DNA of 64,000 nucleotides from Escherichia coli (GTDB lineage Bacteria; Pseudomonadota; Gammaproteobacteria; Enterobacterales; Enterobacteriaceae): assembly GCF_030013205.1 (NCBI RefSeq), contig NZ_CP122648.1. One strand, written 5' to 3'. Of this stretch, positions 10,379 through 37,121 are shown piece after piece; the stretch's first letter is position 1; every line of letters starts with the position of its first letter. A program made the translations under genes and the position numbers. Below the pieces are notes generated by a model. That model did no database searches, had not been told where the DNA came from, and was given only the letters and a program-made list of their open reading frames with translations.

Positions 10379-10385
10379 TATTATG

Positions 10386-14708: not shown

Positions 14709-14723
14709 TGGTGTCCCCTGCAG
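14709..14723. repeat. argW-derived att core fragment (matches the 3'-terminal 15 nt of argW)
   Basis: TGGTGTCCCCTGCAG is identical to the first 15 nt of the argW gene as read on the + strand at 40640-40654. Confidence 0.7.
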
Positions 14724-14796
14724 ACATCTACTTGAAGCGGCAGGGGATTGATTGGAATGGTGTTTTTTAGGTGTGAGAAATATTTTACCCGCTATT

Positions 14797-14997
14797 TTAC
14801 CCATTGGCGCGGCTTAAGAGCTTATTTTTGAATTCACAATGGTCACGATATAACCATCTTGCTCGCCCGTGGATAACTTTGGCTTTTGGCAGGTCGCCGG
14901 ACTTAATCCGGTCGTAGATGAAGGTTTTACCAAAGCCAGTATCAGCCATGATGAATTTCAAATCAACCAGGGAATCAGGCTGTAGTTCGTGTTGCAT
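14797..14997 (-). CDS. Excisionase / AlpA-family small HTH DNA-binding protein
   Basis: 66-aa ORF ...FIMADTGFGKTFIYDRIKSGDLPKAKVIHGRARWLYRD... fits the Xis/AlpA HTH pattern; sits between two att-core fragments. Confidence 0.6.
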   Translation of the reverse strand: MQHELQPDSLVDLKFIMADTGFGKTFIYDRIKSGDLPKAKVIHGRARWLYRDHCEFKNKLLSRANG

Positions 14998-15016
14998 GAG
15001 TGCTATCTCCGAATAG

Positions 15017-15032
15017 GGAATCGAACCTGCAA
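15017..15032. repeat. Second argW-derived fragment (matches the next 16 nt of the tRNA 3' region)
   Basis: GGAATCGAACCTGCAA is identical to argW 40654-40669; together with 14709-14723 it covers 30 nt of the tRNA 3' end, but the two halves are separated by 293 bp. Confidence 0.6.
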
Positions 15033-15107
15033 ATCAGGCAAGAAAAAACCGCCATCAGGCGGTTTGGTGTTCTTTCAGTTCTTCAATTCGAATATTGGTT
15101 ACGTCTG

Positions 15108-15327
15108 CATGCGCTATCTGCGCCCATATCATCCAGTGGTTATAGCAGTCGTTGATGTCCTCTGCTTCGATAAGGAGAAGAAATTCCCAATTACTCAAGA
15201 GCTATACGAGCGACTGGAAAGCGTCATCCATGATTACGATGGTGAAATCAGTTTATGCGAGGCGATTGGCACACTTGAATTGCTGAAGCAGTCATTGATT
15301 GAAGGCGCGAAAGAGTCCTTAGCCTGA
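15108..15327 (+). CDS. Hypothetical small phage protein upstream of the terS remnant
   Basis: Open frame ending ...ITQELYERLESVIHDYDGEISLCEAIGTLELLKQSLIEGAKESLA; start chosen at the first ATG, uncertain. Confidence 0.3.
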
Positions 15328-15344
15328 AATAACAACTAAGTGAG

Positions 15345-15555
15345 ATGAATATGGCAGCACCAAAGGGCAACCGATTTTGGGAGGCCCGCAGTAGTCATGG
15401 GCGAAATCCTAAATTCGAATCGCCTGAGGCGCTGTGGGCTGCTTGTTGTGAATACTTCGAGTGGGTAGAAGCTAACCCGCTATGGGAGATGAAGGCATTC
15501 TCGTATCAGGGTGAAGTGATACAAGAGCCTATCGCCAAGATGCGAGCGATGACCA
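15345..15555 (+). pseudogene. Small terminase subunit (P22 gp3-like), N-terminal about 70 codons only
   Basis: [71 protein letters not shown] matches the P22 gp3 N-terminus as I recall it; the rest of the 157-aa ORF is out-of-context read-through overlapping the next gene. Confidence 0.7.
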
Positions 15556-15657
15556 TTATCCAAACCGTATGCCTGTTGGTAGCGGTAATCAGTTGGCGAA
15601 GTGGAACGGTTGGAGTTACTTCCAGCGAAAGGAACCTTGCGATAACGGGAGCGAATA

Positions 15658-17076
15658 ATGCCGATTCAGCAACTTCCGCTCATGAAAGGTGTCGGAAAAG
15701 ACTTCCGAAACGCCGACTATATCGACTATCTGCCAGTGAATATGTTGGCTACACCCAAAGAAATCCTGAACAGCAGCGGATATCTTCGCTCATTCCCGGG
15801 CATTGCCAAACGTTCTGATGTGAACGGCGTATCGCGCGGAGTTGAGTACAACATGGCGCAGAGTGCTGTTTATCGCGTGTGTGGCGGCAAGCTGTACAAA
15901 GGAGAAAGTGAGGTCGGTGACGTCGCAGGAAGTGGTCGCGTATCAATGGCGCATGGTCGGACATCACAGGCGGTAGGCGTTAATGGTCAACTGGTCGAGT
16001 ATCGTTATGATGGCGCGGTCAAAACCGTCTCAAACTGGCCTACAGACAGCGGATTCACGCAGTATGAGTTAGGTTCTGTTCGTGACATTACGCGCTTACG
16101 TGGGCGTTATGCGTGGTCAAAAGACGGAACTGATTCATGGTTTATCACTGACCTTGAAGACGAATCGCATCCTGACCGTTACAGCGCACAATATCGTGCC
16201 GAGTCGCAGCCTGACGGCATCATCGGCATCGGAACATGGCGAGACTTCATCGTCTGCTTTGGTTCATCGACGATTGAATATTTCTCCCTGACTGGTGCAA
16301 CCACCGTTGGTGCCGCTTTGTATGTTGCACAGCCATCACTGATGGTGCAGAAAGGTATTGCTGGGACTTACTGCAAAACGCCATTCGCTGATTCTTATGC
16401 GTTCATCAGCAATCCGGCAACAGGTGCGCCGTCTGTATACATCATCGGCTCCGGTCAGGTGTCACCAATCGCCAGCGCGAGCATTGAGAAAATCCTCCGC
16501 TCCTACACTGCTGATGAACTGGCTGATGGCGTGATGGAATCGCTGCGGTTTGATGCGCATGAGTTGCTGATTATCCATCTTCCGCGCCATGTCCTCGTGT
16601 ACGACGCATCTTCAAGCGCCAATGGTCCGCAATGGTGTGTGCTGAAAACAGGCCTGTATGACCATGTGTACCGCGCTATTGACTTCATTTACGAAGGCAA
16701 TCAGATAACGTGCGGCGATAAGCTGGAGTCTGTTACCGGGAAATTGCAGTTCGATATATCTTCACAATACGAAAAACAACAAGAGCATATTTTATATTCC
16801 CCTCTAATAAAGGCAGATAACGCTTTAATAAATGACCTTGAATTAGAAACATCTGGCGGCGTGTGTGATAGAATAGATAAAATATTTATATCAGCCACTA
16901 CAGATGGAATTAGTTACGGTCGTGAGCAAATGGTCGTATTACAAAAACCATTTGTATATGAAAATCGCGTTTTATGGCGAAAGGTTGGTCGAGTTAGACG
17001 CCTCATTGGATTTAAATTCAGAGTTATTGCAAAAGGTCCTGTCACATTATCAGGCCTTTCTATTCGTGTAACATAA
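15658..17076 (+). CDS. P22 gp10-like packaged-DNA stabilization / head completion protein
   Basis: 472-aa [52 protein letters not shown]..., same length and near-identical N-terminal region as P22 gp10 from memory. Confidence 0.85.
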
Positions 17077-17097
17077 ATCGAAACTCAAGGAGTAGAT

Positions 17098-17631
17098 ATG
17101 TTAAGTGAAAACGCAAAAGATATCGAAGGATATGAAGGACTGTACGCCATCACTAATGATGGTAGAGTTTACTCGCATTCAAGAGTAAATTTGAGGGGAC
17201 GTCTTATTAAGGGTAGGTGGCTGAAGCATAATCATAACGTAAATGGATATAAGTATGTGTGTTTATATAAGGATGGCGTAAAAAAGAACATACTAATACA
17301 TAAGCTTGTTGCATCTCACTTTGTTGGTGGATTTGCTGAAGGGTTACAGGTAAATCATATAGATGGTGATAAATATAATAATAACTATCTAAATCTTGAA
17401 TGGGTTACTCCATCAGGAAACATCTCACACTCATATGGATTGGAGTCGAGAGGTAATGTAAAAGGAGAAAGGAATGGTAATTCTAAAATATCTAATGATG
17501 ATGTCATAAAGATAAAAGAAATGGTTGCCAATGGATTTCCTCAGTGTGAAGTTGCTAAATTATTTGGAATTCACAATTCAAAGGTTAGTAGAATTGTAAA
17601 TGGCAAGGCATGGAGGCATGTTAATGGCTGA
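17098..17631 (+). CDS. HNH homing endonuclease (HNH + AP2/NUMOD-like DNA-binding region)
   Basis: 177-aa ORF with [17 protein letters not shown] and HKLVASHFV...[11 protein letters not shown] (HNH) motifs; free-standing between gp10 and the tail needle gene. Confidence 0.8.
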
Positions 17632-18055
17632 TTCGAATCTCAACACCCCTGTTATTGTGCAGGCTACGCGGCTCGATACATCAATACTTCCACGCAATAT
17701 CTTCTCGCAGTCGTATCTGCTTTACGTTATCGCACAGGGCACTGATGTTGGTAACGTGGCTAACAAGGCCAACGAGGCCGGACAGGGCGCTTATGATGCA
17801 CAGGTCAGGAACGATGAGCAGGATGTGATTCTGGTCGATCATGAAGAAAGAATTCGTCAGCTCCGCATTGAAGTAGATGACCATGAAATCCGTATTGCTG
17901 CGAATACTGCGGCAATTGCAGCGCTGGATGTCAGACTAACCACGGCTGAAGGAGAAATAGTCACCTTACAGGCTGACGTCAGCGCTCTTGATGGCCGGGT
18001 TCCCGAGAAATACAAAGAGCAGAATTACAAGAAAAGGCTCTGGACAGACAGATAG
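17624..18055 (+). CDS. Tail needle protein (P22 gp26-like), N-terminal domain conserved, short divergent C-terminus
   Basis: [43 protein letters not shown]...[48 protein letters not shown] matches the gp26 N-terminal coiled coil; only 143 aa versus about 233 in P22. Confidence 0.7.
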
Positions 18056-18582
18056 CCAGAGAAAGCAATCAGTTAAAGCTCGAAGAGCTAAAACAGAAAC
18101 AGGCAGATGTTCGGCAAAAGGCTGACATAGCCCGCGCTGACAGGCAGGCCGCCGCTCAGGGTGCGGTTGATACGTTCAGCACCGCGCTTGATTCTCTCAA
18201 CGAGACAGAGCAAAGCCCCGGCCTTTCAAAAGCAGTAGGAATTCGCTCAGCGTTTCCGACAGTTCCTGGCTCTGATGCGGCTAACTTTGAAGCAAGACTC
18301 GACACCTTTAAAGCTCAAACTTTCCTCCCTATGGTGCAGTCCCTGAAGGGGATGGGGGCTCTTTCAGATGCTGAGGGTAAAAAATTATCTGATGCGGTTG
18401 GTGCTCTAAGTCCCAAAATGAGTGAAAAGGCTTTTCGTGACTCTATCGGAAAGATTCGAAATCAGCTTGAAAGCAAGTTGAGCACTGTTAAAAAACAGTT
18501 TGATTATCAGGAGCCAGTACAGAATACGCCAGGGCAACAATCTACTACTGGCAGTAACTTTTCTTCACTATGGGGTGATTAA
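17986..18582 (+). pseudogene. Start-less coiled-coil ORF fragment (possible 3' part of a tail needle or ejection gene after a deletion or frameshift)
   Basis: Frame open from 17986 with no ATG until 18331; encodes ...LKLEELKQKQADVRQKADIARADRQAAAQGAVDTFSTALDSL...; stop overlaps the start of the next gene (ATGA at 18579-18582). Confidence 0.3.
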
Positions 18583-20579
18583 TGGCTAAAGCATGGAAAG
18601 ATGTTATCGCCTCTCCACAGTATCAGGCGTTAGCACCAGAACAAAAAGCGCAGGCTCAGGAGCAATACTTCAATGAAGTCGTTGCCCCGCAAGCCGGAGA
18701 AAATGCAGAGCAGGCTAAGCAAGCTTTCTATGCTGCCTATCCATTGCCATATGTGCAGCAAGTGGAGACACAGCAACCAGTAGCACAGCAACAACCACAG
18801 CAAAGTGGATTTATGTCTGATCTTGGCGAAGCAGTAAAAGAGACTGGTCGCGGACTGGTGCAGGCTGGCGTGAACGTGGCAAACATACCTGCATCAGTTG
18901 CCGATGCTGTAACAAGCGCGGCGGCTTGGGCTGGCGGTAAACTCGGCATTGGCGATGGTACATATCAACCAGCGCCACGTGTAACAACGCAGGGATTAGA
19001 GCAGGACTTTGGCCTTCAGCAAGGCGCGCTGACTCCACAAACGACAGAGGGAAGGGTATTTGCTGAAGCATTGCCTTACCTCACTCCTGCTGGCGTTGAG
19101 AGAGCGGCAGCACAGGCACCAACACTTGCTGGTCGAATTGCTCATGGGGCAACTCGCCTTCTAGCAGAAAACGCAGTTGGATCACTTGCTGCAAATAGTG
19201 CGAAAGATGATGCGGAAGCACTCGCCACCGATTTGGGCGTTGGTGTGCTGGCTGGCGGTGCTATTAACGCTGCCGGACGTGGATTAGGTGCTGCTTATCG
19301 TGGAGTTCGTGGTGCTATTGCGCCAGAAGCGCAGCAAGCTATCAGATTTGCAGAGCGTGAAGGAGTGCCTCTGCACACCACAGACATGTTACAGCCTACT
19401 TCCCGCGTCGGAAAAATGGCGCAAACGACAGCAGAAAATATCCCCCTGGCGGGCACAAGCGGAATGAGAGCAACGCAACAGGAAGCGAGAAGCCAGTTGG
19501 TTCAGAGATTTGCTGATAAATTCGGTGAGTATGATCCAGCGGTTGTTATTGACAGCCTTAAAGCGAAAACATCAGGAATTCGTCGCGCTGCAGGAAATCG
19601 ACTGGAGCAGGTTCAGAATGCTATGGCGGGAATAAACATTCAGCCTGCAAGAGCAATTCAGCAGATTGATACAGAAATATCTAACCTGCAGAAGCTTGGT
19701 AAGGTTGCTGATAACGAGACTATTTCAAAACTTCAGTCCTATCGTGATGAGCTTGTTCGCAATGCTGGTCCTGATGGTCCGGTAAATCTGGATTTGAAGC
19801 AATTAAGCGATCTGCGCAGCCAGTTCAGAATGGACGTGAAGGGTGAGCGACCAGTGTTACCAAACCGTTCCGATGCTGCAATTCAGCGCGTTTACAAGGC
19901 AATGACCGACGATATCAATGGTGCCATTGGTCAGAATCTTGGCAACGATACTCTCCGTAAATATCAGCAGGCCAATGCCGTCTACGCTGACGAAGCCGCG
20001 AAACTAAAGAATACCAGGCTGAAGAATGTTCTCATGAAAGGCGATCTGACGCCGGAAGTTGTCAACAACATGCTATTCAGCAAGAACAAATCGGAAATTA
20101 AGACGCTGTATAACTCAGTTGGTCGTGTTGGCAGGGCGCAAATGCGCAATGGCATCATTGGAAAGGCGATGGAGAAATCTGGCGGATCCCCTGACCAGTT
20201 CCTTCGGCAGCTTAACATCCTGCAAAACCAGACTGGCATCACATTTAAGGGGCAGGACGCTGCTTATCTGAAAGGATTAAAAAACTACCTGCAATCTACG
20301 CAGCAGGCTGCAAAAGCGGCAGTAACAACACCCACAGGGCAGCAAACTATCCCGTTCATTATTGGGTATGGGACGGCAATGAACCCTGCGACAACTGGCG
20401 CAGCAGTAAGCTACGGACTTCTTACTCGCGCCTATGAGAGCGAGCCATTCAGAAATGCAATGCTCAGAATGGCAAACACCCCACGCGGATCAACAGCGTT
20501 TGAGAAAGCCATGCAGCAGGCACAAAAGGCAATTAACGCTCTGACGCAGGGGGCTAAGTCTGATGCGTTGTCAGAATAG
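18582..20579 (+). CDS. Putative phage DNA-transfer (ejection/injection) protein
   Basis: 665-aa Ala/Gln/Gly-rich protein in the position of the P22 ejection-protein genes (after the tail needle, before mnt); assignment is positional and compositional. Confidence 0.5.
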   Translation: MAKAWKDVIASPQYQALAPEQKAQAQEQYFNEVVAPQAGENAEQAKQAFYAAYPLPYVQQVETQQPVAQQQPQQSGFMSDLGEAVKETGRGLVQAGVNVANIPASVADAVTSAAAWAGGKLGIGDGTYQPAPRVTTQGLEQDFGLQQGALTPQTTEGRVFAEALPYLTPAGVERAAAQAPTLAGRIAHGATRLLAENAVGSLAANSAKDDAEALATDLGVGVLAGGAINAAGRGLGAAYRGVRGAIAPEAQQAIRFAEREGVPLHTTDMLQPTSRVGKMAQTTAENIPLAGTSGMRATQQEARSQLVQRFADKFGEYDPAVVIDSLKAKTSGIRRAAGNRLEQVQNAMAGINIQPARAIQQIDTEISNLQKLGKVADNETISKLQSYRDELVRNAGPDGPVNLDLKQLSDLRSQFRMDVKGERPVLPNRSDAAIQRVYKAMTDDINGAIGQNLGNDTLRKYQQANAVYADEAAKLKNTRLKNVLMKGDLTPEVVNNMLFSKNKSEIKTLYNSVGRVGRAQMRNGIIGKAMEKSGGSPDQFLRQLNILQNQTGITFKGQDAAYLKGLKNYLQSTQQAAKAAVTTPTGQQTIPFIIGYGTAMNPATTGAAVSYGLLTRAYESEPFRNAMLRMANTPRGSTAFEKAMQQAQKAINALTQGAKSDALSE

Positions 20580-20668
20580 CTTTTCAAACACCAGGAACGT
20601 GCAAAAACCAAATATGTAGAATGCAATATTCATCATATCTCTGTGCATAAATCCTCCGTAACGGATGG

Positions 20669-20932
20669 TTATCTGCTGTCTTTTTTATATAGCTCCTTGA
20701 GCGTATCAAAGACAATTTTCTTAACCATATCAGATTGTTGTTCTGCCATACGCTCTGCATCGTCAATGTAAACTGATGCAGAGCTTTGTTTATCCAATGA
20801 TTCTTCAATCGCTGCAATTATCTCTGAGTTCAGCGACCTGTTATTCATCTTCGCACGCAGCTTAATTTTCGCGTGGAGTTCATGCGGAAGTCTCAAGTGA
20901 AACTGCGCCTCATCGTATTTGCTGTACATCAT
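20669..20932 (-). CDS. mnt: Mnt/Arc-family ribbon-helix-helix repressor
   Basis: 87-aa product MMYSKYDEAQFHLRLPHELHAKIKLRAKMNNRSLNSEIIAAIEESL...DMVKKIVFDTLKELYKK resembles P22 Mnt; the longer 244-aa ORF in the track is an upstream read-through. Confidence 0.75.
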   Translation of the reverse strand: MMYSKYDEAQFHLRLPHELHAKIKLRAKMNNRSLNSEIIAAIEESLDKQSSASVYIDDAERMAEQQSDMVKKIVFDTLKELYKKDSR

Positions 20933-21064
20933 CAATGCCTCACCAAATGGGTGGAATGGCATCGTAAAACCCACTGTACAAATCAACAATCGTACCGTTT
21001 CGGTATGTAACAAATTCCAACCGTAGCCATGCTGCGGCCATTCCTTGTATCTGGAGCAAATTAA

Positions 21065-21734
21065 ATGACAGACATTACAGCCAATGTGATCGTATCGATG
21101 CCTTCGCAACTCTTCACTATGGCTCGTTCTTTTAAAGCCGTAGCCAATGGCAAAATTTATATCGGTAAAATTGACACTGACCCGGTAAATCCTGAAAACC
21201 AGATTCAGGTTTATGTGGAGAACGAAGACGGTTCTCACGTTCCTGTTGCACAGCCAATCATCATTAACGCCGCTGGTTATCCTGTATATAACGGACAGAT
21301 TGCCAAGTTCGTTACTGTGCAAGGCCATTCCATGGCTGTTTATGATGCGTATGGGGCGCAGCAGTTCTATTTTCCGAATGTGCTGAAGTACAACCCTGAT
21401 CAATTACGAACAATTCTTGAAGGAAGTATTATTGATTCTTCAGGCGATGTTTTTGGCTCTCCTGTGCGTGATTTTGAATATTTTGGCGCAGTAGGTGATG
21501 GTGTTGCCGATGACACTAATGCAATTAAATCCGCGGCTGCATGGGTTACTTCTGGAAATTATCGGCAAATAACTACCAGAGAACAAAAGATATATCGCGT
21601 AACATCAACCGTTGATTTTAATTTCGCTAACGGCCGCGGTCACTCGATTCTGATGAAGAGTCCAATCCGACCTGATGCTGGAACCGGCACTGCTTTTCTC
21701 ATTCAGAATACTCGAGACTCGGTATTCAATTTGA
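21065..21734 (+). pseudogene. Tailspike gene, 5' part (P22 gp9-type head-binding domain plus start of beta-helix), interrupted by IS1
   Basis: [58 protein letters not shown]... matches the P22 tailspike N-terminal domain; the frame is cut by the IS1 end at 21735. Confidence 0.85.
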
Positions 21735-21749
21735 GGTAATGACTCCAAC

Positions 21750-22253
21750 TTACTGATAGTGTTTTATGTTCAGATAATGCCCGATGACCTTGTCATGCAG
21801 CTCCACCGATTTTGAGAACGACAGTGACTTCCGTCCCAGCCTTGCCAGATGTTGTCTCAGATTCAGGTTATGCCGCTCAATGCGCTGAGTATAACGCTTG
21901 CTGATAACGTGCAGCTTTCCCTTCAGGCGTGATTCATACAGCGGCCAGCCATCCGTCATCCATACCACGACCTCAAAGGCCGACAGCAGGCTCAGAAGAC
22001 GCTCCAGTGTGGCCAGAGTGCGTTCACCGAAGACGTGCGCCACAACCGTCCTCCGCATCCTGTCATACGCGTAAAACAGCCAGCGCTGACGTGATTTAGC
22101 ACCGACGTAGCCCCACTGTTCGTCCATTTCAGCGCAGACAATCACATCACTGCCCGGTTGTATGCGCGAGGTTACCGACTGCGGCCTGAGTTTTTTAAGT
22201 GGCGGAAAATCGTGTTGAGGCCAACGCCAATAATGCGTGCACTGGCGCGACAT
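21750..22253 (-). CDS. insB: IS1 InsB' (transposase made as an InsAB' frameshift fusion)
   Basis: 167-aa ORF ending ...[18 protein letters not shown], overlapping insA in the -1 frame. Confidence 0.95.
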
Positions 22254-22447
22254 CCGACGCCATTCATGGCCATATCAATGATTTTCTGGTGCGTACCGGG
22301 CTGAGAGGCGGCGTAAGTGAACTGTAGTTGCCATGTTTTACGGCAGTGAGAGCAGAGATAGCGCTGATGTCCGGCGGTGCTTTTGCCGTTACGCACCACC
22401 CCGTCAGTAGCTGAACAGGAGGGACAGCTGATAGAAACAGAAGCCAC
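22172..22447 (-). CDS. insA: IS1 InsA
   Basis: 91-aa [46 protein letters not shown]... Confidence 0.95.
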
Positions 22448-22502
22448 TGGAGCACCTCAAAAACACCATCATACACTAAATCAGTAAGTTGGCAGCATCA
22501 CC

Positions 22503-23790
22503 CAATTTGAAAGTAGATGGGGGCGGGGACTCAAATGCGGATTACTATGTTCCTGGAAGCACAAACTTCGTTGACTATAGCCAGGCAGACCCGGCAGGCG
22601 CCCAGACAGCATTTTATATCAGGGGGGTCAGAAATTCTGATATTGATGTGACTGGGCTTAAATTTGCAGGGCGAGTTCTTCGCACCAATGCGTTGGACGT
22701 TGCCGCTGGTGGGATTATCAAAACATCGTTCAATACATTGCGCATTAAGACTGGGGACCAGGGGGCCGGTGAAACTGTACGTTGTGGTCAGGCGTATTAT
22801 CTACAAGGTGATGATTCTGCATGGGGCAAGATTGATCGCGCCTGGCTTAACTGGGACAGGTTTGGCAGTGTGCATTACAAACTAGTGGATGTTACCATTG
22901 GGAATATAGAAGCTGGTTTTGCAGGTAACGGCGGGCTTCAGTTTTATGGGATAGCTACCGCCCACATTGGAACTCTTTCCGTTGGTGATGAGACATTAAC
23001 TAACACTAATATCTTGTTCGCTAACTCAACGGACGGACAAGAATGTATTGCAGTACATATAGACAGAATCTTTACTGGCTCAGGTAATATCGGGGTAGAG
23101 CTAAGGGGTTCTAATGGGGGTGGTGGTGGTAATAGACCAAACTTTGATATCAACAGCATCTACGTAATTACGTGTGCAAACAGCAATGTCATATTGAACG
23201 GAACCAATAATAGCATCATAAGGAATATTCAATCTCAGGGCGGCGCTGTTGCCGTTAGATTGCAGCGGGTTATAAGAAACCTTCATCTCACTATTAATAG
23301 CTCCTCTGAATCAGGATCTAGCATCCTCGCAGACCCAGGTTCAAACATAAATAACTTGTATGTTAATGGCAGGAGTTACGGTAATACAGGAGCAGCTACT
23401 GTAGACCTTTTAGCCGCTACTGGGGGTATGCGCTGTGTGTTTGATGGATATACCGTGCGATCTGGAATGGCAGCGTACGCCATTCCAGTAACAAACTCTG
23501 TCACCATTCAAAATGGTGAAATAGATATATCATCTGGAGGTGTTGCTTTCTCGGTTGGAGTTCCAAGGGTAAACGTAAATAACGTTGGGTTTATTACTAG
23601 GAATAGAGGGTCAGGTTTAATTTTGGCAGGAAACCAGACCATTACTATCTCTCATGGTCTTGCACAACAGCCAACAGAAATATGTGTGACGCCATTATCA
23701 ACAGCAACTGGGTTTAGAGTGCTTAATATTACAGCGACATCATTTGATGTGAGATTATCCTCTGCATTAGGTGGTTCGGATCCAGCTTAG
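22503..23790 (+). pseudogene. Tailspike gene, 3' part (receptor-binding beta-helix domain)
   Basis: Frame continues directly from the 5' part once IS1 and one TSD copy are removed (...DSVFNL|KVDGGGDSNADYY...); Gly/Asn/Thr-rich beta-helix-like repeats. Confidence 0.8.
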
Positions 23791-23828
23791 ACATTCAATT
23801 GGTTTGCATCATGTGAGTATCATTAAAA

Positions 23829-23860
23829 TATTAAGGGGGCGCGCCCCCTTAATATTTTTG
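23829..23860. terminator. Bidirectional intrinsic terminator between tailspike and the glycosylation cassette
   Basis: GC-rich palindrome AAGGGGGCGCGCCCCCTT flanked by A-run and T-run. Confidence 0.6.
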
Positions 23861-23861
23861 C

Positions 23862-24794
23862 TCACTTACCAATACTTAAGTAGAAAAGAGATTTCATCTC
23901 TCTTCTGCTTACAGTTATTGCCTGCAATATGATCCCGCACATAAATGACAGGACTGAAATAAGCATAATTGCACTTGCTGCGACTGCCGTTGGCAATCTT
24001 GGTACCAGTCCTGTTTCTGCAAACTCTTTAACGATAGGCAGGCCAAGAGATAGAGAAATAACCGCAAAAAAGCATGAAAGTATTCCGAAGAAATATATTG
24101 GTCTTTCAATTGCATAAAGCTTTATTATAGTCTTCAGGATTCTGAATCCATCTTTGTAAGTTGAAAGCTTACTTTCAGAACCATCAGGTCTGCTTCCATA
24201 ATATGTATCTACTTCACCATATTTCATACGTAATTCCAGAGCATGAATCGTCAGCTCTGTTTCAGTCTCAAATCCTCTTGACTGGCTTGGAAAAGATTTT
24301 ACATATCGTTTTGTAAAAGCTCTATATCCTGAAAGCATGTCAGTAAATTCACCTTTAAATATTGTCGTAACAGTGCCAGTTAAAACTCTGTTTCCAAACC
24401 TGTGACCAGATCGATATGTTTTTATAGACCCATCATCTTTTCTACATCCAACAACCATATCTAGGTCATCATCAATAAGTTTATCGATGAGTTTTTTTAC
24501 AGCTGCTGCCTCATAGGTATCATCGCCGTCAACCATGATGTAAATGTCAGCATCAACATCAGCAAACATTCGTCTAACAACGTTACCTTTCCCTTTTAAG
24601 TTAACGTGCTTAACTATAGCTCCAGACTGTTTTGCTACATCTCCGGTAGAGTCTGTGGAATTATTGTCAAATACGTAAATATCACCTTCCGGAAGGAACC
24701 TTCTAAAATCTGTGACGACATTAACTATAGAAAGCGCCTCATTATGGCAAGGTATTATAACTGCAACTTTAAAACCTCTGTAGTTATTCATCAC
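23862..24794 (-). CDS. GT2-family polyprenyl-phosphate glycosyltransferase (GtrB-like architecture: GT-A domain plus two C-terminal TM helices)
   Basis: 310-aa ORF with ...AVIIPCHNE... and ...MVDGDD... (DxD) motifs and a hydrophobic C-terminus; N-terminus diverges from canonical GtrB. Confidence 0.7.
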   Translation of the reverse strand: MMNNYRGFKVAVIIPCHNEALSIVNVVTDFRRFLPEGDIYVFDNNSTDSTGDVAKQSGAIVKHVNLKGKGNVVRRMFADVDADIYIMVDGDDTYEAAAVKKLIDKLIDDDLDMVVGCRKDDGSIKTYRSGHRFGNRVLTGTVTTIFKGEFTDMLSGYRAFTKRYVKSFPSQSRGFETETELTIHALELRMKYGEVDTYYGSRPDGSESKLSTYKDGFRILKTIIKLYAIERPIYFFGILSCFFAVISLSLGLPIVKEFAETGLVPRLPTAVAASAIMLISVLSFMCGIILQAITVSRREMKSLFYLSIGK

Positions 24795-24801
24795 ATAACC
24801 T

Positions 24802-26160
24802 CTACATGTAATATCTAGTAATAATGGAAGGAATCATTGCGTTCAACGAAACAATTAACATTATAACTGTGATAATGTACGCAATCATTTGTTTTTTCTT
24901 GTTCTGGCTCATTAACAAGAAGGCGGAAATAATTACAGGAATCACAAAGTATCGCCCCTGAATACCAATTATAACATCGGTAGGAAATTTTGAATATTGC
25001 ACAAGTAATGCGCAAAAAATCAATGCTGCTGACCCAAGTGACACTATAGCCACTGATAAGGAAAAGAATATATGTTTTTTGATTTCCGAATAAGAAATAG
25101 ATAATGATATTAATGCAACTATTACTACAAAAGAAACAATATAAAGATAGGTTGGCATCCATATGTCTAGCCACCCCAACTTCCCTACAAAACTCTTGAA
25201 GTAGAATGAACTGCGACCGTAATCAGAAATGGTATTGTAAATTATACTTAAAATTTCAAATGGATGTTTTAAGTAATATGCTATAACCTCGCCTTGACTT
25301 ATTCCAGGGTGGTTTACCCCTCCATCCACGGTTATTGATATTGTTAATCCTATCCATCCTAGAGATAGCACTGCAGCAAAAAATGGAGGTAACAATCTTA
25401 TTTTTGATTGTGAATAATATGCCGCAATGAATGGTAAAATCAACACTGGTATAAGGTTAGCCCTGCTTGAAACTAGAATAAATGCAATAAATGAAATAAA
25501 TATTAAGCAGGTGTCTCCAATCTCCTTTTTCATTGCCCCTCTTGCAAGTAAGCACATCATAAGAACAGACAATGATGTTGTTATACCATCTATAGTTGTT
25601 GCAATGAACTGAAAAAGCATCATCGGCATGACCATAACACATAAAGCAAGTGCTGGTATTCTATATATGCTATTGGCATATATAATGATTGAGATGCAAG
25701 TTATAAATGCCAGAAATCGCGATATTTTATAAGTGTCTAGGATGGATAAATTAAAAGCTTTACCAAACATAATCCCTATTGACTGAGGGATGTATACAGC
25801 GGGGAAGTAAAATGCTGTGTTTGGTATCTCTTTGTATACTTTGTTATCCCCCCAATTTTTCATATCAATGCCTAACATCATTGAATTGGATATTTTCCCA
25901 ACATGTCCATTATTAAATATTTCAAATGAGTCATTTAGAGACTTATCAATGTAACCACCTGACTTAAAACCATCGTTATTATTTAGGGTTATTACCCCGT
26001 TAGTAAGAAGATAAGCGCGTGAAAAATGATGTGGCTCATCAGGGCTCATAAATGGTGGAGTTACAGAACTTATCGCAATATATAAAACAAAAGAAAAGAT
26101 AAATAAAAATAATTTTTTATGTAATGATTTCATTTGGCAATCACTTATCATTAAAAACAA
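24802..26160 (-). CDS. Polytopic membrane glycosyltransferase (GT-C/GtrC-like, serotype-specific O-antigen modification candidate)
   Basis: 452-aa AT-rich multi-TM ORF between gtrA and the GT2 gene; 20-bp overlap with gtrA. Confidence 0.55.
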   Translation of the reverse strand: MFLMISDCQMKSLHKKLFLFIFSFVLYIAISSVTPPFMSPDEPHHFSRAYLLTNGVITLNNNDGFKSGGYIDKSLNDSFEIFNNGHVGKISNSMMLGIDMKNWGDNKVYKEIPNTAFYFPAVYIPQSIGIMFGKAFNLSILDTYKISRFLAFITCISIIIYANSIYRIPALALCVMVMPMMLFQFIATTIDGITTSLSVLMMCLLARGAMKKEIGDTCLIFISFIAFILVSSRANLIPVLILPFIAAYYSQSKIRLLPPFFAAVLSLGWIGLTISITVDGGVNHPGISQGEVIAYYLKHPFEILSIIYNTISDYGRSSFYFKSFVGKLGWLDIWMPTYLYIVSFVVIVALISLSISYSEIKKHIFFSLSVAIVSLGSAALIFCALLVQYSKFPTDVIIGIQGRYFVIPVIISAFLLMSQNKKKQMIAYIITVIMLIVSLNAMIPSIITRYYM

Positions 26161-26500
26161 TAAATTTTGCGTACAAGAAGCCTATAAATAAGCTTATTGC
26201 TGAAAATATAATGGCGCTAAGCATAGGTGGCGTATAAAGTATGTCTCCAACCCATCCAACGCAAGAGCTGAGTATTCCCATAAATCCCACATAGAGTAGA
26301 TATCGCATTGTTGATGTTCTTGACATAAATGTGAATCTGGCATTTGCAAAGAATGAGAAGCTTACTGCAAAGATAAAACCGGCTAAATTAGATAACGCTT
26401 GGGTTGCGTGCATTGAATAATAACAAAAAGCAAATATAACCCAATGTATGATTGTGTTGATGATGCCAATAGATGTGTACTTAGCGAACAATTTTAACAT
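26141..26500 (-). CDS. gtrA: GtrA-family flippase-like small membrane protein
   Basis: 119-aa ORF MLKLFAKYTSIGIINTIIHWVIFAFCYY...FFANARFTF... matches the GtrA family. Confidence 0.85.
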   Translation of the reverse strand: MLKLFAKYTSIGIINTIIHWVIFAFCYYSMHATQALSNLAGFIFAVSFSFFANARFTFMSRTSTMRYLLYVGFMGILSSCVGWVGDILYTPPMLSAIIFSAISLFIGFLYAKFIVFNDK

Positions 26501-26650
26501 TTTTTTGTCAACTAACTCTTAAAGGGGGGAGTCTATCACTTTAGTCTCAATCGATCGATACTTGCTGTGGTTGATGGGGCAAAACTGAGACACAAAAAGC
26601 TTTGCACTGGATTGCAAGGCTTTGTGCACTTCGATAGTGGTTAAGGTGGA

Positions 26651-27808
26651 TCACTCCACCTTTTCATCAATCCAGTCCGCCCACCACTGCATCATCTCCC
26701 GGCGCTTATCGAGATACTGAGCATGGTTGTAAATCCCGCGCACAGATCCGCCGTTGGCATGTGCCAGTTGCACTTCAATAGCATCAGCAGGCCATTCGTG
26801 CTCGTTCATAATCGTGCTGAATTCATGCCTGAATCCGTGACCGCTTTCCAGACCTTCATAGCCGATTTGTTTGATCACAAGCAGTACAGCGTTCTCGCAG
26901 ATTGGCTTCTTCTTATCGTTGCGCCCGGCAAAAACAAACTCTGATACTGGTTTAGTGATTGAGCTTAGTGTAGTGAGAAGTTCAACCACCTGGTCTGACA
27001 TCGGGACAACATGAATTTTGCGTCCCTTCATCACACTGGCGTCGATGGTGATAATCCTGTTTTCAAAATCGACGTTCTTCCATAGCATGGAACGAAGCTC
27101 TTTTGTTCTTAGGGCTGTGTAGCGTAAAACTTTGGTCGCAATGAGCGATACGATACTTCCTGAAAATGTTGCAAGTGCTTTGTTGAATGCCGGGATCTGG
27201 TCGGCAGGTAAAAACGGGAAGTTCTTCTTGCGGTATCCCTTCATGGCGTCAGCAAGGTCAGGTGCCGGGTTATATTTAGCCCTACCAGTAACAATAGCGT
27301 AACGGAAAACCTCGCCGCATCTTCTGCGTGCTTTGTTGGCTCGCTCCATTGCACCGCGATCTTCAAATCTGCGGATTACTTCCAGAAGTTGCATCGGCTC
27401 AATATCCTGAATTTCAAGGCCGCCGATGATAGGTAAAATGTCGTCATCAAACATTTTTGCAAGTTCATTTGCATAGCCTACTGACCAGACTTGCTTCTTG
27501 TGCTCGTACCATTCCTTGTAAATGGCGCTAAAGGAATTGTTGTTAGACGAAGCCTTTTTCGCCTTTACCGGATCGATGCCAACCGAGATGTCTTTCCTCG
27601 CAGTCCATGCTTTATCCCTTGCCTCTTGCAAAGTCATAAGCGGATATTTTCCGACGGTCAGGATTTTCTCCTTACCGTCAATCTTGTAGCGAAGCTGCCA
27701 TACCTTTTTCCCTGATACAGGGACATAAAGATACAGGCCATTACCATCGAGTAGGCGGTATGGTTTTTCTTTCGGCTTTGCTGCTTCAATCTGCTTAACG
27801 GTGAGCAT
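26651..27808 (-). CDS. intS: Tyrosine integrase, IntS/CP4-57 type (DUF4102 arm-binding N-domain)
   Basis: Start taken at MLTVKQIEAAKPKEKPYRLLDGNGLYLYV...; C-terminal ...HGFRHEFSTIMNE... catalytic region; adjacent to an argW-derived att copy. The track's upstream GTG start is judged less likely. Confidence 0.85.
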   Translation of the reverse strand: MLTVKQIEAAKPKEKPYRLLDGNGLYLYVPVSGKKVWQLRYKIDGKEKILTVGKYPLMTLQEARDKAWTARKDISVGIDPVKAKKASSNNNSFSAIYKEWYEHKKQVWSVGYANELAKMFDDDILPIIGGLEIQDIEPMQLLEVIRRFEDRGAMERANKARRRCGEVFRYAIVTGRAKYNPAPDLADAMKGYRKKNFPFLPADQIPAFNKALATFSGSIVSLIATKVLRYTALRTKELRSMLWKNVDFENRIITIDASVMKGRKIHVVPMSDQVVELLTTLSSITKPVSEFVFAGRNDKKKPICENAVLLVIKQIGYEGLESGHGFRHEFSTIMNEHEWPADAIEVQLAHANGGSVRGIYNHAQYLDKRREMMQWWADWIDEKVE

Positions 27809-27969
27809 GGGTAAAAATCCGGTGGGTAAAATTATTTTATCCACTTTTTACCCGTCATGGAGTGCGGCTGTCAACGATCTGACGCGAACCATGACGAACC
27901 GTGAATATACGGAAGGCTTGATATTCAGGGTATTTTGCGGACTGGTACGGATGGGAGCGAACTGATAAA

Positions 27970-27991
27970 TGGTGTCCCTGCAGAAATCATC
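27970..27991. repeat. argW-derived att copy at the junction of the two tandem islands
   Basis: TGGTGTCCCTGCAGAAATCATC versus argW TGGTGTCCCCTGCAGGAATCGA (one missing C, two mismatches). Confidence 0.7.
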
Positions 27992-28205
27992 TTAATTATT
28001 ATCATATTGATTTATATGTTATTTATTTTAGCCATCTTGTTTTTGTACCCGTTTTGTACCCGTTTTATTCTATTCCCAATTTAAACTTCGATTCTGGAAA
28101 GGTGAGTAGGGGAGGTTATCATTTTATGTATCATTGTTGTAGACACAGAATAATTACTCGCCTATCCTCACTGTATACACACCATAGATACAGGAGTTAA
28201 CCCAC

Positions 28206-28454
28206 ATGCGCACACAGGTTGTATTGCAAAAATGGGGTAACAGCATTGCCCTTCGACTAACGGGAAACCTTAAAACCGTTCCGGGTTTTTCAGTGGGTGA
28301 TATCGTCAACGTTGAAATTAGTGAAAAAGGGCTTTTTGTAGAAAAGCCTGCACGCCGTCGCCTGAGTGAAGCCGAACTACTCGCCGGGATAACGCCAGTT
28401 ACAGCGCACGCTGACGAAATTGCCACCCCATTCAATGAGGAGGTTGATTACTGA
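28206..28454 (+). CDS. MazE/PemI/ChpS-family antitoxin (AbrB/SpoVT fold)
   Basis: 82-aa ORF MRTQVVLQKWGNSIALRLTGNLKTVPGFSVGDIVNVEISEKGLFVEKP... Confidence 0.8.
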   Translation: MRTQVVLQKWGNSIALRLTGNLKTVPGFSVGDIVNVEISEKGLFVEKPARRRLSEAELLAGITPVTAHADEIATPFNEEVDY

Positions 28455-28798
28455 TGTTTGTACCTAAGCGTGGTGATATTTGCTGGCTGGATTTTGAGCC
28501 GCAGAAAGGAAAAGAGATCGGAAAGTATCGCCCGGCACTCATACTATCCCATGAGCAATATAACCGACTCACCGGGCTTGTCATATGCTGCCCCATAAGT
28601 ACGAGCATACGAAATGCTCCCACAGAAGTTCCGGTAACAAATCTGGACGCCCCCAGCGTGGTAGCAACCACACTCATTCAAACCCTTGACTGGCGTCAGC
28701 GGAAAGCGCGCTTAATCACAGAGGCAGAAGATGGGGTATTTAATGATGTGCTTGAAAGAGTCATTACTCTGATTGGTGGAGAGCATCTGCTTAAGTAA
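28454..28798 (+). CDS. MazF/PemK-family endoribonuclease toxin
   Basis: 114-aa ORF MFVPKRGDICWLDFEPQKGKEIGKYRPALILSHEQYNRLTGLVICCPISTS..., start overlapping the antitoxin stop. Confidence 0.8.
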   Translation: MFVPKRGDICWLDFEPQKGKEIGKYRPALILSHEQYNRLTGLVICCPISTSIRNAPTEVPVTNLDAPSVVATTLIQTLDWRQRKARLITEAEDGVFNDVLERVITLIGGEHLLK

Positions 28799-28841
28799 AA
28801 GGAGGGCTGAGAAGCCCTCAACGTTACCGGAAATTTCCTTG

Positions 28842-30113
28842 CTATTCTTTCCAGTCAATCCCATCCAGTAAGCACCCTGCCTCATATTGCCCCACCACCC
28901 AGTCAAGGTTACAGGACTCATAGAACGCGAGGCGATTATACTGAGGCTCGTTTTTTACCAGGCCACGAACGGAACCACGCTGCCAGTACAGACACAGATT
29001 GGCAAGAGGTGTGATCAATACAGCATTGTCCGGGAAAAATGGAACGGTCACAGCCGGGAGATTCCCCAGAACGGGATTTTTAATGATTTCCTCGTTAAGC
29101 AAAATTTCCTGATTCATCTGCGATGGATCAAGACGGTTTATCAAAGGCCATTGTTTACGGACCAGCGTATTGTGACTGCATACGGCCACAATGCCTTCCT
29201 GCCACTGTTCATCAATCATGGATTGCCAGGCATCCAGAACGAGCGCATCTATCGTATGGTGTGTACCGCGTATATTACTTTTCGGTGATGAGACAGAAAG
29301 GCCGCTGATAACCCTTCCCGCCGCTTCATTTCGAAACTTCTGCAACCAGCCCACGCCGCAATCGTCACGCCCCGGATATGTTCCGGGATCTGATACATCG
29401 GCATAGTGCGTACCGTTAAAACCAATCTGAATCAAATCCAGCCATTTCTGGCGTTCAAAAGCAGCCCGGGCGCTTCCTTCAAGACCGTTTGCGGATGCGT
29501 GAGCATCAACATTGTCGTAGTTCAGCGCAAAATCAAAATTAACCTGCTCGCAGCGGTAGCCCCTTGAAACCAGTGAATGCGCCTGTAGTGGCGAGCGGCG
29601 CTCGTGAGGTGGCGATGTACGTGCTAACGGCCCCGAAGCGTCTACCAGCACAACCTGACCTGATATATCCGTAACAGGCACGGGAGTTATTTCAGCAAGG
29701 AAATTTGCCTGCCATCCACTGGCAAGCGTTGCACTCTGGCGGGGGACGGGTTCAACTTCTGACGAATAGCGCGCAGTGTCACCGGAAAAGTGCAAATCCT
29801 TCGGATGCTTTCCGGTTATCGACTCGATAGCGCAATTGAAAACCATCTGAGACTGTTGATTTCGTTGTGATACAACAGAATCAGCAGTGCAATTATAACG
29901 CTCAATGCCGTCGTTATTACCCCCACCGCTTGCAGTATGCAGGGTGTGAAGCTCAAGCTCACGCTCCAGTTTTTGATATTCATTGTCCAGCGCGCGACGC
30001 GTCTCATCGCTTATGCTTGCTGTGTTTGCTTTCAGGCGATTCCGGGACATTAATCCCCTGAGTCGGCTCACTATATCAGCGCCGTGCAAATGTGGAGTAT
30101 TCAGACCGCCCAT
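28842..30113 (-). CDS. P2 gpN-family major capsid protein homologue with divergent N-terminal region
   Basis: Start taken at internal ATG 30113 (TAATG overlap with the upstream gene stop). C-terminal two-thirds align by eye with P2 gpN (...YRCEQVNFDF..., ...GWLQKFRNEAAGRV..., ...GNLPAVTVPFFPDNAVLITPLANL..., ...YESCNLDWVVGQYEAGCL...). Confidence 0.7.
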   Translation of the reverse strand: MGGLNTPHLHGADIVSRLRGLMSRNRLKANTASISDETRRALDNEYQKLERELELHTLHTASGGGNNDGIERYNCTADSVVSQRNQQSQMVFNCAIESITGKHPKDLHFSGDTARYSSEVEPVPRQSATLASGWQANFLAEITPVPVTDISGQVVLVDASGPLARTSPPHERRSPLQAHSLVSRGYRCEQVNFDFALNYDNVDAHASANGLEGSARAAFERQKWLDLIQIGFNGTHYADVSDPGTYPGRDDCGVGWLQKFRNEAAGRVISGLSVSSPKSNIRGTHHTIDALVLDAWQSMIDEQWQEGIVAVCSHNTLVRKQWPLINRLDPSQMNQEILLNEEIIKNPVLGNLPAVTVPFFPDNAVLITPLANLCLYWQRGSVRGLVKNEPQYNRLAFYESCNLDWVVGQYEAGCLLDGIDWKE

Positions 30114-30823
30114 TACTGCCACCCCCGGCAGAGTTCTCTGCCCTCCGCAAGGTCGCGCATTTTTTCTGGATTCTGTCGCGCCGCGCTCCATTGTACAGGT
30201 GAAGGGGCGCTCCTGATTGCGCAGCTTACTGAATCCGGGAGTTTCTCCGGGCAATAACGCAGCGGGCTGGAGGTGTCGCTTTCGGTATCGTTAATCCGGC
30301 CGCGAATCATCCCGACACTTTCAGCAGTATCTGCCGCTTTCAGTGTTTCGCATATTTTCTTTTCTGCGTTATACAGCGGCTGGCCAAGTAGCTCACATAA
30401 ACCACGAATCAATAACAGAACAGGGGTCAGCTCGTTAATCAGTTCGGGAAGTGCTTTTGCAAATATCTCTGCCCGCAACTTATTATCAATGCTTTCGTAA
30501 GCACAACCAGCCTCTGCCGCGTTATAACGACACTCCAGTAGCCTGATGCGCGCTTCATCATGCAATACCCGCAGACGCTCAAGATTTTCTCGCGCCACAC
30601 CCGCCTGAATGGATAATTTCGCGGAGGCTTCCGTTTTTACGCCCAGCGCAGACAGGATTGAGTTCTGCCAGTCACGATCGAGAGATTCCAGCTCCCCTTT
30701 CGTCTGTTCGATAGTCGCTTCCAGATTGGTGATTAATGATTCCTGTTCACTGAGTTTTGCCATGGCTGTATCAAACTGTGCTTTACATACCTGATGTTCG
30801 GCGCTTGCCTGAGTTATATCCAT
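30113..30823 (-). CDS. Coiled-coil protein coupled to the capsid homologue (candidate scaffold, Sid or Psu-like morphogenetic factor)
   Basis: 236-aa helical ORF immediately upstream of and overlapping the capsid gene start; assignment is positional. Confidence 0.4.
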   Translation of the reverse strand: MDITQASAEHQVCKAQFDTAMAKLSEQESLITNLEATIEQTKGELESLDRDWQNSILSALGVKTEASAKLSIQAGVARENLERLRVLHDEARIRLLECRYNAAEAGCAYESIDNKLRAEIFAKALPELINELTPVLLLIRGLCELLGQPLYNAEKKICETLKAADTAESVGMIRGRINDTESDTSSPLRYCPEKLPDSVSCAIRSAPSPVQWSAARQNPEKMRDLAEGRELCRGWQ

Positions 30824-30873
30824 TATTTGCTCCTGTAATACATTTTTTTACTTACGCCGATTTTTTCCATATT

Positions 30874-30934
30874 GCGTAATACATTCCAGCCGATTTTGTT
30901 CTCGTAATACGCTCACAATACTGTTGTATTACGC
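30874..30934. promoter_or_regulatory. Three palindromic operator-like sites GCGTA(A/T)TACGC in the divergent promoter region
   Basis: Sites at 30874-30882, 30903-30912 and 30926-30934 between the coiled-coil gene start (30823) and the RHH gene start (30989); further copies at 31014-31024, 31545-31555 and 31906-31913. Confidence 0.55.
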
Positions 30935-30988
30935 TTTCTTATATCGCGGGTGTTAAATCCCGGCATAAACAATCAGGGAGGCAACACG

Positions 30989-31222
30989 ATGAAAAAACAA
31001 AAGAAAATGCGATGCGTATTACGCTGTATTCGTATCCCGCACGAAATCGACCATAAAATAAATCAGATATGTGAGGACAGAGAGATGAACTACTCCCAGT
31101 GCGTCAGAATGTTTATCAGTCAGGGAATTAAGGCCGGGGAAAAGCAGGAAGAAGACCACAACGGGCGCAATGTAGCGGGGGATGTGTGGGCCTGGGCAAA
31201 TGACCAGAACCACACGACGTAA
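30989..31222 (+). CDS. Small ribbon-helix-helix-like putative transcriptional regulator
   Basis: 77-aa product MKKQKKMRCVLRCIRIPHEIDHKINQICEDREMNYSQCVRMFISQGIKAG...; GGGAGG RBS 8 nt upstream; divergent from the capsid operon. Confidence 0.45.
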   Translation: MKKQKKMRCVLRCIRIPHEIDHKINQICEDREMNYSQCVRMFISQGIKAGEKQEEDHNGRNVAGDVWAWANDQNHTT

Positions 31223-31272
31223 TACAGAAATAACGCAGCCGGTCACACTCGCTGGCTGTGTTATACAAATCA

Positions 31273-31455
31273 CTATGAAGTTTTCGACTTCCTGCGCTTA
31301 GTAATGCGTACAAACGACTCAAGCGTACAAAAACAAGCCCCACACTCAATATTGTTGCACTGGTAATACGTTCTGTAGATGTTTTGTTCGTGTTCTTCCA
31401 ACGAACGACCACGGGTGCGAGCTGAAGCGCCACAGGCCGGGCAAGGGAAAGACAT
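31273..31455 (-). CDS. Ogr/Delta-family zinc-finger late-gene transcriptional activator
   Basis: 60-aa ORF MSFPCPACGASARTRGRSLEEHEQNIYRTYYQCNNIECGACFCTLESF... with the CPxC...RT.R...YxQCxNxxCxxxFxTxES pattern of P2 Ogr. Confidence 0.8.
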   Translation of the reverse strand: MSFPCPACGASARTRGRSLEEHEQNIYRTYYQCNNIECGACFCTLESFVRITKRRKSKTS

Positions 31456-31817: not shown

Positions 31818-31845
31818 TTGTGCAAATTTGTGCACTTTTGTGCAG
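31818..31845. promoter_or_regulatory. Three direct TTGTGCA repeats with 10-bp phasing (operator-like)
   Basis: TTGTGCAAATTTGTGCACTTTTGTGCAG; a fourth TTGTGCAC at 31746-31753. Confidence 0.45.
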
Positions 31846-33630: not shown

Positions 33631-33632
33631 AC

Positions 33633-36302: not shown

Positions 36303-36314
36303 ATATAAATCCCC

Positions 36315-36344: not shown

Positions 36345-36348
36345 TTAA

Positions 36349-37119: not shown

Positions 37120-37121
37120 CG

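Follow-up and report, generated by a model that had tools for sequence, protein, structure and literature searches.

How does the 3' end of one tRNA gene come to lie in two consecutive pieces on either side of an excisionase gene? The question is raised by a 64,000-nt stretch of Escherichia coli DNA (contig NZ_CP122648.1, assembly GCF_030013205.1; hereafter the window), in which three copies of the 3' end of argW, a tRNA gene, are found at a distance from the gene itself, at 27970-27991, 15017-15032 and 14709-14723. A sequence-only reading of this DNA took the three copies as signs of tandem island integration, and the last two as one attachment (att) core split by 293 bp. It held that a single integration cannot produce a split core, and proposed either a tiny secondary insertion into an attR core or two overlapping att remnants from different elements. 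We find that two integrative elements do lie in tandem at argW, and that the "split core" is the known architecture of the recombination module of phages of the KplE1/HK620 type and not a rearrangement. The 16-nt copy (hereafter the 16-mer) is best explained as having arrived with the phage; this explanation, together with the tandem architecture, is one that we hold with high confidence. The strong conservation of an 11-nt core of the 16-mer upstream of the excisionase gene, torI, is the new point here, and is a modest but cheaply testable lead.

Copies of the argW 3' end in the window

ARAGORN analysis identified argW as the only tRNA gene in the window. On the plus strand its 3' end reads TGGTGTCCCCTGCAG|GAATCGAACCTGCAA, and the 3' 15 nt (40640-40654) constitute the att core and the present attL of a P4-like island. 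An exact repeat of TGGTGTCCCCTGCAG is found at 14709-14723 (15 nt) and an exact repeat of GGAATCGAACCTGCAA at 15017-15032 (16 nt). Within the tRNA these two copies overlap by one base (G), while in the window they are 293 bp apart, the sole credible gene in the gap being a 66-aa open reading frame (ORF) on the minus strand at 14797-14997. The copy at 27970-27991 carries a 1-nt deletion (CCCC to CCC) and one mismatch, leaving 18 of 20 aligned positions identical (GATT[T]CTGCAGG-GACACCA), and is missed by a search that allows mismatches but no gaps. The positions, exactness, gap and gene reported by the sequence-only reading were thus all reproduced. Additional 11-13-nt matches to the D-arm region of the tRNA, at 17240, 30813 and 39039, are AT-rich and at chance level. 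The coordinates of all features are collected in Table 1.

Table 1 Features of the argW locus, with the basis of each assignment.
Feature	Coordinates	Strand	Basis or remark
attR core of island 2	14709..14723	+	displaced original argW 3' end; chromosomal flank starts at 14708; empty-site genomes, annotated attP core of HK620/Sf6
P arm of attR	14724..14796	-	IntS arm-type repeats TTTTACCC at 14783-14790 and 14795-14802; degenerate T-loop-like half-site beside core
torI (hkaC), 66-aa recombination directionality factor (excisionase) of KplE1/HK620/Sf6	14797..14997	-	
Second argW-like element	15016..15032	-	16-mer TTGCAGGTTCGATTCC (15017-15032) holds most of the core GTTCGATTCCC (15016-15026)
Intrinsic (bidirectional) terminator hairpin	15046..15065	-	just upstream of the 16-mer
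Island 2, HK620/Sf6-like (Lederbergvirus; P22-like) remnant	14724..27969	.	annotation of genome 100% identical across 14300-15500; phage matches
intS, KplE1/HK620-type integrase	26651..27808	-	383/385 identical to CUS-3 integrase; RefSeq name intS in genome 100% identical across 14300-15500
P' arm of KplE1-type att	27809..27969	-	TorI sites (GTTCG/GTCCG/GATCG arrays), IntS arm-type repeats (TTTTACCC), intS promoter region; sequence, compared with HK620 and published site description (PMC2951348)
Middle hybrid att	27970..27991	+	island 1 right end, then degenerate argW core, then IntS-side (P') arm of island 2; sequence
Island 1, P4-like satellite	27992..40639	.	domain, RNA and annotation matches
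MazE/MazF pair	28206-28798	+	
P2-family major capsid homologue	28842-30254	-	N-terminal extension of about 165 aa
Ogr/Delta-like protein	31273-31455	-	
Second XerC/D-like tyrosine recombinase, 333 aa	32629-33630	-	
P4 alpha-type primase	33633-36302	-	
C4 antisense RNA and isrK-like RNA, adjacent	37522-37716	-	79.7 and 52.1 bits; P4-type immunity region
AlpA-like excisionase	38378-38599	-	
P4-family integrase	39199-40503	-	33% identical to IntS
argW, tRNA-Arg(CCU)	40640..40714	-	ARAGORN; Rfam tRNA, 63 bits; sequence

The apparent split core is the layout of the phage recombination module

The gene in the gap, described in the sequence-only reading as Xis/AlpA-like, was identified as torI. Its product (WP_001163428.1) is the same protein as K-12 TorI, is 100% identical to HK620 HkaC and Sf6 gp18, and matches PDB entry 1Z4H (E=7e-43, identical sequence), PHROG 66 (excisionase) and, weakly, the Pfam families HTH_17 and Phage_AlpA; NCBIfam contains no TorI model. 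The gene is the last of the prophage and adjoins attR, with its stop codon 73 bp from the core. In elements of the KplE1/HK620 type, attP lies between int and xis, and a core of 16-17 nt (CTGCAGGGGACACCAT) is duplicated at the prophage ends (PMC2951348, PMC8787464). Integration through an attP so placed leaves xis and int at opposite ends of the prophage, with torI beside attR.

The whole block, comprising the core, 73 bp, torI, 19 bp and the 16-mer, was found in or beside the attP of the free phages HK620, Sf6, Kapi1 and at least 15 others. Over 14709-15100, which includes the 16-mer, the window is 96-98% identical to the free phage genomes HK620, Sf6, Kapi1, HK633 and others, and the annotated attP core in HK620 and Sf6 is the 15-mer. 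The block is also present in K-12 KplE1, and at a coverage of at least 80% in 1,404 of 5,426 complete E. coli genomes. Since free phages carry the block, a single integration delivers the entire arrangement, and neither a secondary insertion nor an overlap of remnants is needed to account for it; the contention that one integration cannot yield this layout is contradicted by the same genomes.

The sequence on the torI side of the core gives a second line of evidence. Left of the core, most relatives read TTCGATGTA|TGCAGGGG and the HK620 type reads GTAGATGTC|TGCAGGGG, compared with TTCGATTCC|TGCAGGGG in the tRNA. The attP core is thus already accompanied by a diverged T-loop-like half-site of its own, making the 16-mer a second copy and not a missing half, and the fading of tRNA homology at this half-site is what is expected at the edge of a crossover region. 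The same half-site rules out an insertion of xis into a longer, contiguous ancestral attP. A 135-bp attR whose boundary falls within the 3' end of torI supports excision in vitro (PMC3509656; primers mapped on K-12), which places the 16-mer outside the minimal recombination site.

A local secondary insertion, in which, in this chromosome or a recent ancestor of it, a tiny torI cassette entered a 30-nt attR core that had until then been contiguous, would explain why the two pieces follow directly on each other in the tRNA and why the gap holds a single small gene. It is nevertheless very improbable, given the presence of the same block in free phages, in K-12 and in the 1,404 genomes, and given the homology between the sequence left of the core and the P arms of all relatives, degenerate T-loop included. 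In addition, a synthetic contiguous query, with the 16-mer joined to the core, returned only two-piece matches with torI between the pieces, and none that was contiguous among the top matches. A chance match of the 16-mer to argW can be dismissed: T-loop sequences are frequent in DNA that bears tRNA genes, and a motif-first scan of viral contigs mostly recovered real tRNAs, but none of 100 dinucleotide shuffles equalled the match count to the argW end, about 0.002 exact 16-mers are expected from a 75-nt tRNA in 128 kb by our own arithmetic, and the matched segment adjoins the core segment and occupies the same place across genera. The sequence-only reading had named, as the outcome that would overturn it, a 16-mer that is simply part of a longer conserved phage sequence unrelated to argW; the 16-mer does belong to conserved phage sequence, but its match to argW is too good and too well placed to be called unrelated.

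Tandem occupation of argW

Strain K_EC180 and a group of swine enterotoxigenic E. coli (ETEC)/O139 genomes match the region 14300-15500 at 100% identity. In genomes with an empty site, the gene order is csc transporter, DUF4942 fragment, argW and yfdC, and the alignment with the left flank of the window runs through exactly 14723 before continuing into tRNA-Arg. The 15-mer at 14709-14723 is thus the original end of the tRNA, displaced by 25.9 kb of inserted DNA. It matches the published 16-nt core CTGCAGGGGACACCAT at 15 positions, the 16th base being flank in this strain. The intS-side arm (27800-27988) directly abuts an intact argW in approximately 1,900 complete E. coli genomes, whereas the junction type of the window, with a satellite between the intS arm and argW, was found in only about 10 genomes of a small swine clone. 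With an empty site known, two integrases that are 33% identical and three copies of the core, tandem occupation of the argW 3' end by two integrative elements was demonstrated, in agreement with the sequence-only reading, and 27970-27991 is where the P4-like satellite meets the HK620/Sf6-like prophage remnant, as it had proposed. Taken as a whole, the locus is argW occupied in tandem, in an ordinary way, by elements of known kinds.

The contrast between approximately 1,900 single occupancies and about 10 tandem junctions, together with the geometry of the locus, suggests that the phage arrived first and the satellite later. In the proposed course of events, a temperate phage of the HK620/Sf6/KplE1 type, with attP between torI and intS, would have integrated first at argW, leaving intS beside the tRNA and torI at the opposite end, 73 bp in from the attR core (14709-14723). 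Decay of the phage to a 13-kb remnant would have followed, and a P4-like satellite with its own P4-family integrase would have entered the regenerated argW, displacing the old attL to 27970-27991. The 16-mer at 15017-15032 would have come in with the phage and not as the other half of a split core.

Excision requires an identical core at attL, which is not present: the copy at 27970-27991, now outside any tRNA, has lost one G/C of the GGGG run. This 1-nt deletion falls in the crossover segment, so that neither element is likely to excise alone. The loss bears on present function and not on ancestry. The order of integration and the lost excision competence both rest on inference, which weighs against the account at these two points.

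Conservation of an 11-nt element upstream of torI

On the torI strand, the 16-mer contains most of the 11-nt sequence GTTCGATTCCC, which starts 29 nt upstream of the torI ATG. TorI-family excisionase loci were sampled from annotated phages, from one genome per species (20 loci) and from viral contigs; a first viral scan with a TorI alignment had returned only 100% identical copies. The motif GTTCGATTYCC, with up to three mismatches, was found at 81 of 92 sampled xis loci, and in 21 of 22 representative lineages it starts 28-29 nt upstream of the ATG. It is retained where Xis is only 36-52% identical to TorI, as in Erwinia phage phiEt88 (36-39%) and Salmonella Emek/g341c, and it occupies the -29 position of the excisionase gene in argW-integrating phages of Escherichia, Salmonella, Citrobacter, Pantoea, Edwardsiella and Erwinia. 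Across the 22 lineages, and on loci chosen for having the motif, which counts against taking the figures at face value, mean pairwise identity was 96.9% for the 11-nt motif, compared with 45.8% for the 11 nt just upstream and 46.9% for xis third codon positions; for pairs below 60% amino-acid identity the values were 96.7%, 42.1% and 38%, respectively.

The base after TTCC is T in the tRNA but C in nearly all lineages, which argues for one ancestral element kept by selection and not for repeated capture from the tRNA. In the HK620, L097 and L292 types, similarity to argW extends to 15-16 nt (TT[G/C]CAGGTTCGATTCC), and we infer that this longer match is a trace of tRNA origin. Taken together, the comparisons suggest an old origin of the 16-mer from argW, with selection having kept its 11-nt core as a cis element that controls torI.

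That the 16-mer is instead the overlapping att remnants of two elements, or a neutral fossil that the phage lineage has kept with it from an earlier argW att site, is an unlikely alternative with several points in its favour. A 16/16 match to the tRNA segment that adjoins the core hardly arises without descent from argW. The 16-mer sits at a mosaic boundary, with lambda homology from 15035 and a "boundary sequence bsq2" annotated there in Sf6. The CUS-3 record took the 16-mer for an att core, and some lineages have lost it without apparent harm. Overlapping remnants as a local event are excluded by the free phages, K-12 and the 1,404 genomes that carry the same block, which disposes of the second proposal of the sequence-only reading. 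A neutral fossil is hard to reconcile with an 11-nt core that is 97% identical where flanks and synonymous sites are at 38-47%, with its fixed distance to the ATG, or with the C shared by nearly all lineages against the T of the tRNA.

Two findings weigh against retention of the 11-nt core by selection as a control element. The 16-mer is dispensable for excision in vitro (PMC3509656). The motif is absent from 11 of the 92 loci, in one group by a clean 26-nt deletion, and its loss in some lineages indicates that it is not essential.

A motif-first scan of viral contigs with GGTTCGATTCCC-N3-9-GGAG gave, among the matches listed, at least 78 real tRNAs, at least 18 TorI-type loci and at least 28 others, mostly tRNA-like, and is uninformative on whether other families of recombination directionality factor (RDF) carry the motif. 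In two IMG/VR contigs, L213 (3648, 5703, 6178) and L214 (315, 981, 1371), a unit resembling a tRNA 3' half (...GGCGGGTTCGATTCCCGCCTCCGGAGCAATGCC...) occurs three times per contig, each copy before a different ORF; these are unrelated to the argW locus. Upstream of xis in Erwinia phage Midgardsormr38 (L007, 2300-2335), CAGGTTCGATTCCC occurs twice in tandem at a distance of 16 nt, the only duplicated instance seen. No earlier description of such a conserved tRNA-like element upstream of an excisionase gene, and no dissection of the torI upstream region, was found in the accessible literature.

Candidate roles of the 11-nt element

One reading of the comparative data, to which we give an even chance, is that GTTCGATTYCC is an exapted fragment of the integration target that now acts as a control element for excisionase synthesis, read by TorI and/or the core-binding domain of IntS, or acting as an anti-Shine-Dalgarno strand. 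Of the three mechanisms, a TorI operator upstream of torI would be the most likely, since GTTCG, a TorI pentamer established by experiment, occurs within the element, which is also very similar to the I1 site. Mutation of GTTCG, GATCG and GTCCG served to define the TorI sites (PMC2951348). GTTCG is preserved in the arm arrays of HK620, Midgardsormr38, Chronis, EhrS49 and Emek, and TCAGTTCGATTCCCA, the element of the L297 type, differs little from the proven site I1, TCAGTTCGCTCCCA. Two observations speak against an operator: in about 25 arm sites GTTCG is always followed by C or T and never by A, the base present in the element; and phiEt88 keeps the motif though its arm repeats have changed. 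Alternatively, the core-binding domain of IntS would bind the element, a candidate suggested by its identity to the attB left half-site and by its staying in the tRNA version while the attP half-site drifts.

The third candidate acts at the RNA level. In the torI mRNA, GGUU...AUUYCC could pair with GGAGAU...AACC, hiding the ribosome-binding site and keeping translation of the excisionase off until the structure is opened. This hairpin is the minimum free energy fold in most lineages, and it accounts for the conservation above 90% of the AU after GGAG and of the AAC before the ATG, which is otherwise unexplained. Pairing is seen in 83% of cells, compared with 33-63% in slid controls, and the commonest variant of the motif (C to T) turns a C.A mismatch into a U-A pair (z = -2.5 to -3.3). 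Against it, no compensatory change was observed, the one pair that changes on both sides being equalled by shuffles; the invariant CG lies in an internal loop; and the HK620 type, to which the window belongs, lacks the AACC partner and folds no better than shuffles (z = -0.26). A role confined to RNA is doubtful, although a hairpin that sequesters the Shine-Dalgarno sequence may coexist with the other candidates.

Other explanations of the region were tried and rejected. The annotators of HK620 described the region of the 16-mer as a cII-dependent "integration" promoter; its TTGC-N6-TTGC tetrads are found only in the HK620 type and not in Emek, phiEt88 or Pantoea-type relatives. A T-arm-like hairpin in the mRNA is not conserved across lineages. 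A sigma-70 promoter scan of 14500-15400 found none.

An Rfam search of the locus gave no family at threshold. A sub-threshold match to STnc130 at 14947-15074 on the plus strand (30.6 bits; gathering score 55) is antisense to the 5' end of torI and the 16-mer, ends at the bidirectional terminator hairpin, and rests on the antisense of the conserved LVDLKF codons and on the terminator. STnc130, a Salmonella Hfq-associated small RNA candidate near dmsA, may in turn represent the antisense strand of what remains of a TorI-like xis.

The phage remnant and its att arms

Besides torI and intS, island 2 contains fragments of terminase, gp4 and tail genes, a NUMOD4 gene, Arc, and gtrA/gtrB/gtrC-like O-antigen modification genes. 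The NUMOD4 gene, of homing-endonuclease type (17098-17631, plus strand), lies amid P22-like tail genes. The head-binding fragment of the tailspike is cut by IS1 (21750-22447, minus strand), and several late genes are annotated as fragments. The intS gene is listed with a GTG start at 27844, while homology indicates an ATG at 27808. The integrase is of the IntS type (P4 family, with a DUF4102 arm-binding domain and the NCBIfam domain PRK09692), and transcription of its gene runs away from the att on the tRNA side. Read as its reverse complement, 27850-27969 gives ...CAGTTCGCTCCC...GTCCG...GGTTCGTCATGGTTCGCGTCAGATCGTTGAC, with TorI sites and IntS arm repeats as in HK620 and as published (PMC2951348).

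At the opposite end, a 7-bp inverted repeat joins the core to the P arm (CCCCTGC at 14715-14721 and GCAGGGG at 14740-14746, 18 nt apart). The repeat is intact or nearly so in all relatives examined, down to 36% Xis identity, with a variable spacer, and may be a pair of core-type integrase sites or a hairpin. DNA shared with lambda and many lambdoid phages (15035-15100) begins right beyond the 16-mer and includes the terminator. The left flank, from about 9000 to 14500, carries a csc sucrose-utilisation cluster, a truncated dsdX and a frameshifted dsdA, where K-12 has dsdC, and csc is separated from the att core by a 50-aa DUF4942 fragment; this flank is the known hypervariable argW-dsd region.

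Compared with KplE1 (CPS-53) of K-12, the remnant has the same integrase family, an identical TorI, and the same core, arm repeats, TorI sites and 16-mer upstream of torI, with torI as the last gene and intS as the first. It differs in its body, which consists of P22-like late genes and a gtr cluster in place of the yfd genes of KplE1, in the csc flank, where K-12 has dsdC, and in its attL, which carries the 1-nt deletion and is parted from argW by the satellite. The Lederbergviruses HK620, Sf6 and Kapi1 share with it the attP region, with the core at the 15-mer and xis and int flanking attP; they are intact phages, whereas the window holds a remnant. The CUS-3 prophage of E. coli K1 RS218 has a 99% identical integrase and the same 16-mer at its right end. 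Lambda likewise has a heterobivalent tyrosine integrase and an RDF with direct-repeat site arrays, and the shared DNA directly upstream of xis corresponds to lambda 29098-29163. In lambda, however, xis and int are adjacent and co-transcribed with attP downstream, whereas in the KplE1/HK620 type attP lies between them, the P' (int-side) arm carries the RDF sites, and int is expressed from an autoregulated promoter of its own (PMC2951348).

The P4-like satellite

Island 1 has the hallmarks of a P4-like satellite: its P4-family integrase acts at the 3' end of a tRNA, and it encodes an alpha primase and an Ogr/Delta-type activator as well as a C4/CI-type antisense RNA. Unlike P4, which targets leuX, it targets argW, and it adds a P2-family capsid homologue, MazEF and an extra XerC/D-like recombinase. 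The XerC/D-like recombinase region is approximately 1.66 kb shorter in K_EC180, which places the origin of the window in a sister strain and not in K_EC180 itself.

Consequences for prophage annotation and excision control

The 16-mer is easily misread in annotation, since together with argW it forms a perfect 16-nt direct repeat close to each end of the prophage. In the CUS-3 GenBank record (CP000711), TTGCAGGTTCGATTCC is labelled as the attL and attR core, and the record ends there. Over the first 700 bp at that end, a CUS-3-type prophage in UTI89 shows 100% identity, and it carries torI immediately beyond, with the true core CTGCAGGGGACACCA expected beyond torI. That CUS-3 might be a torI-less relative with a contiguous site is ruled out by torI lying just past the end of the record in UTI89. 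The att label of CUS-3 is best read as a mis-call caused by the repeat, one that excludes torI and the real attR, and about 310 bp appear to be missing from the right end of the prophage as deposited. For delimiting argW prophages, including Stx and O-antigen-converting phages, the CTGCAGGGGACACCA core beyond torI should be used.

The discussion in PMC2951348 regards regulation of the excisionase gene as the principal switch of excision in this group of phages. A near-invariant element at -29 that resembles both an attB half-site and a TorI site would be an obvious candidate for the control of torI, and one that could be tested cheaply in K-12.

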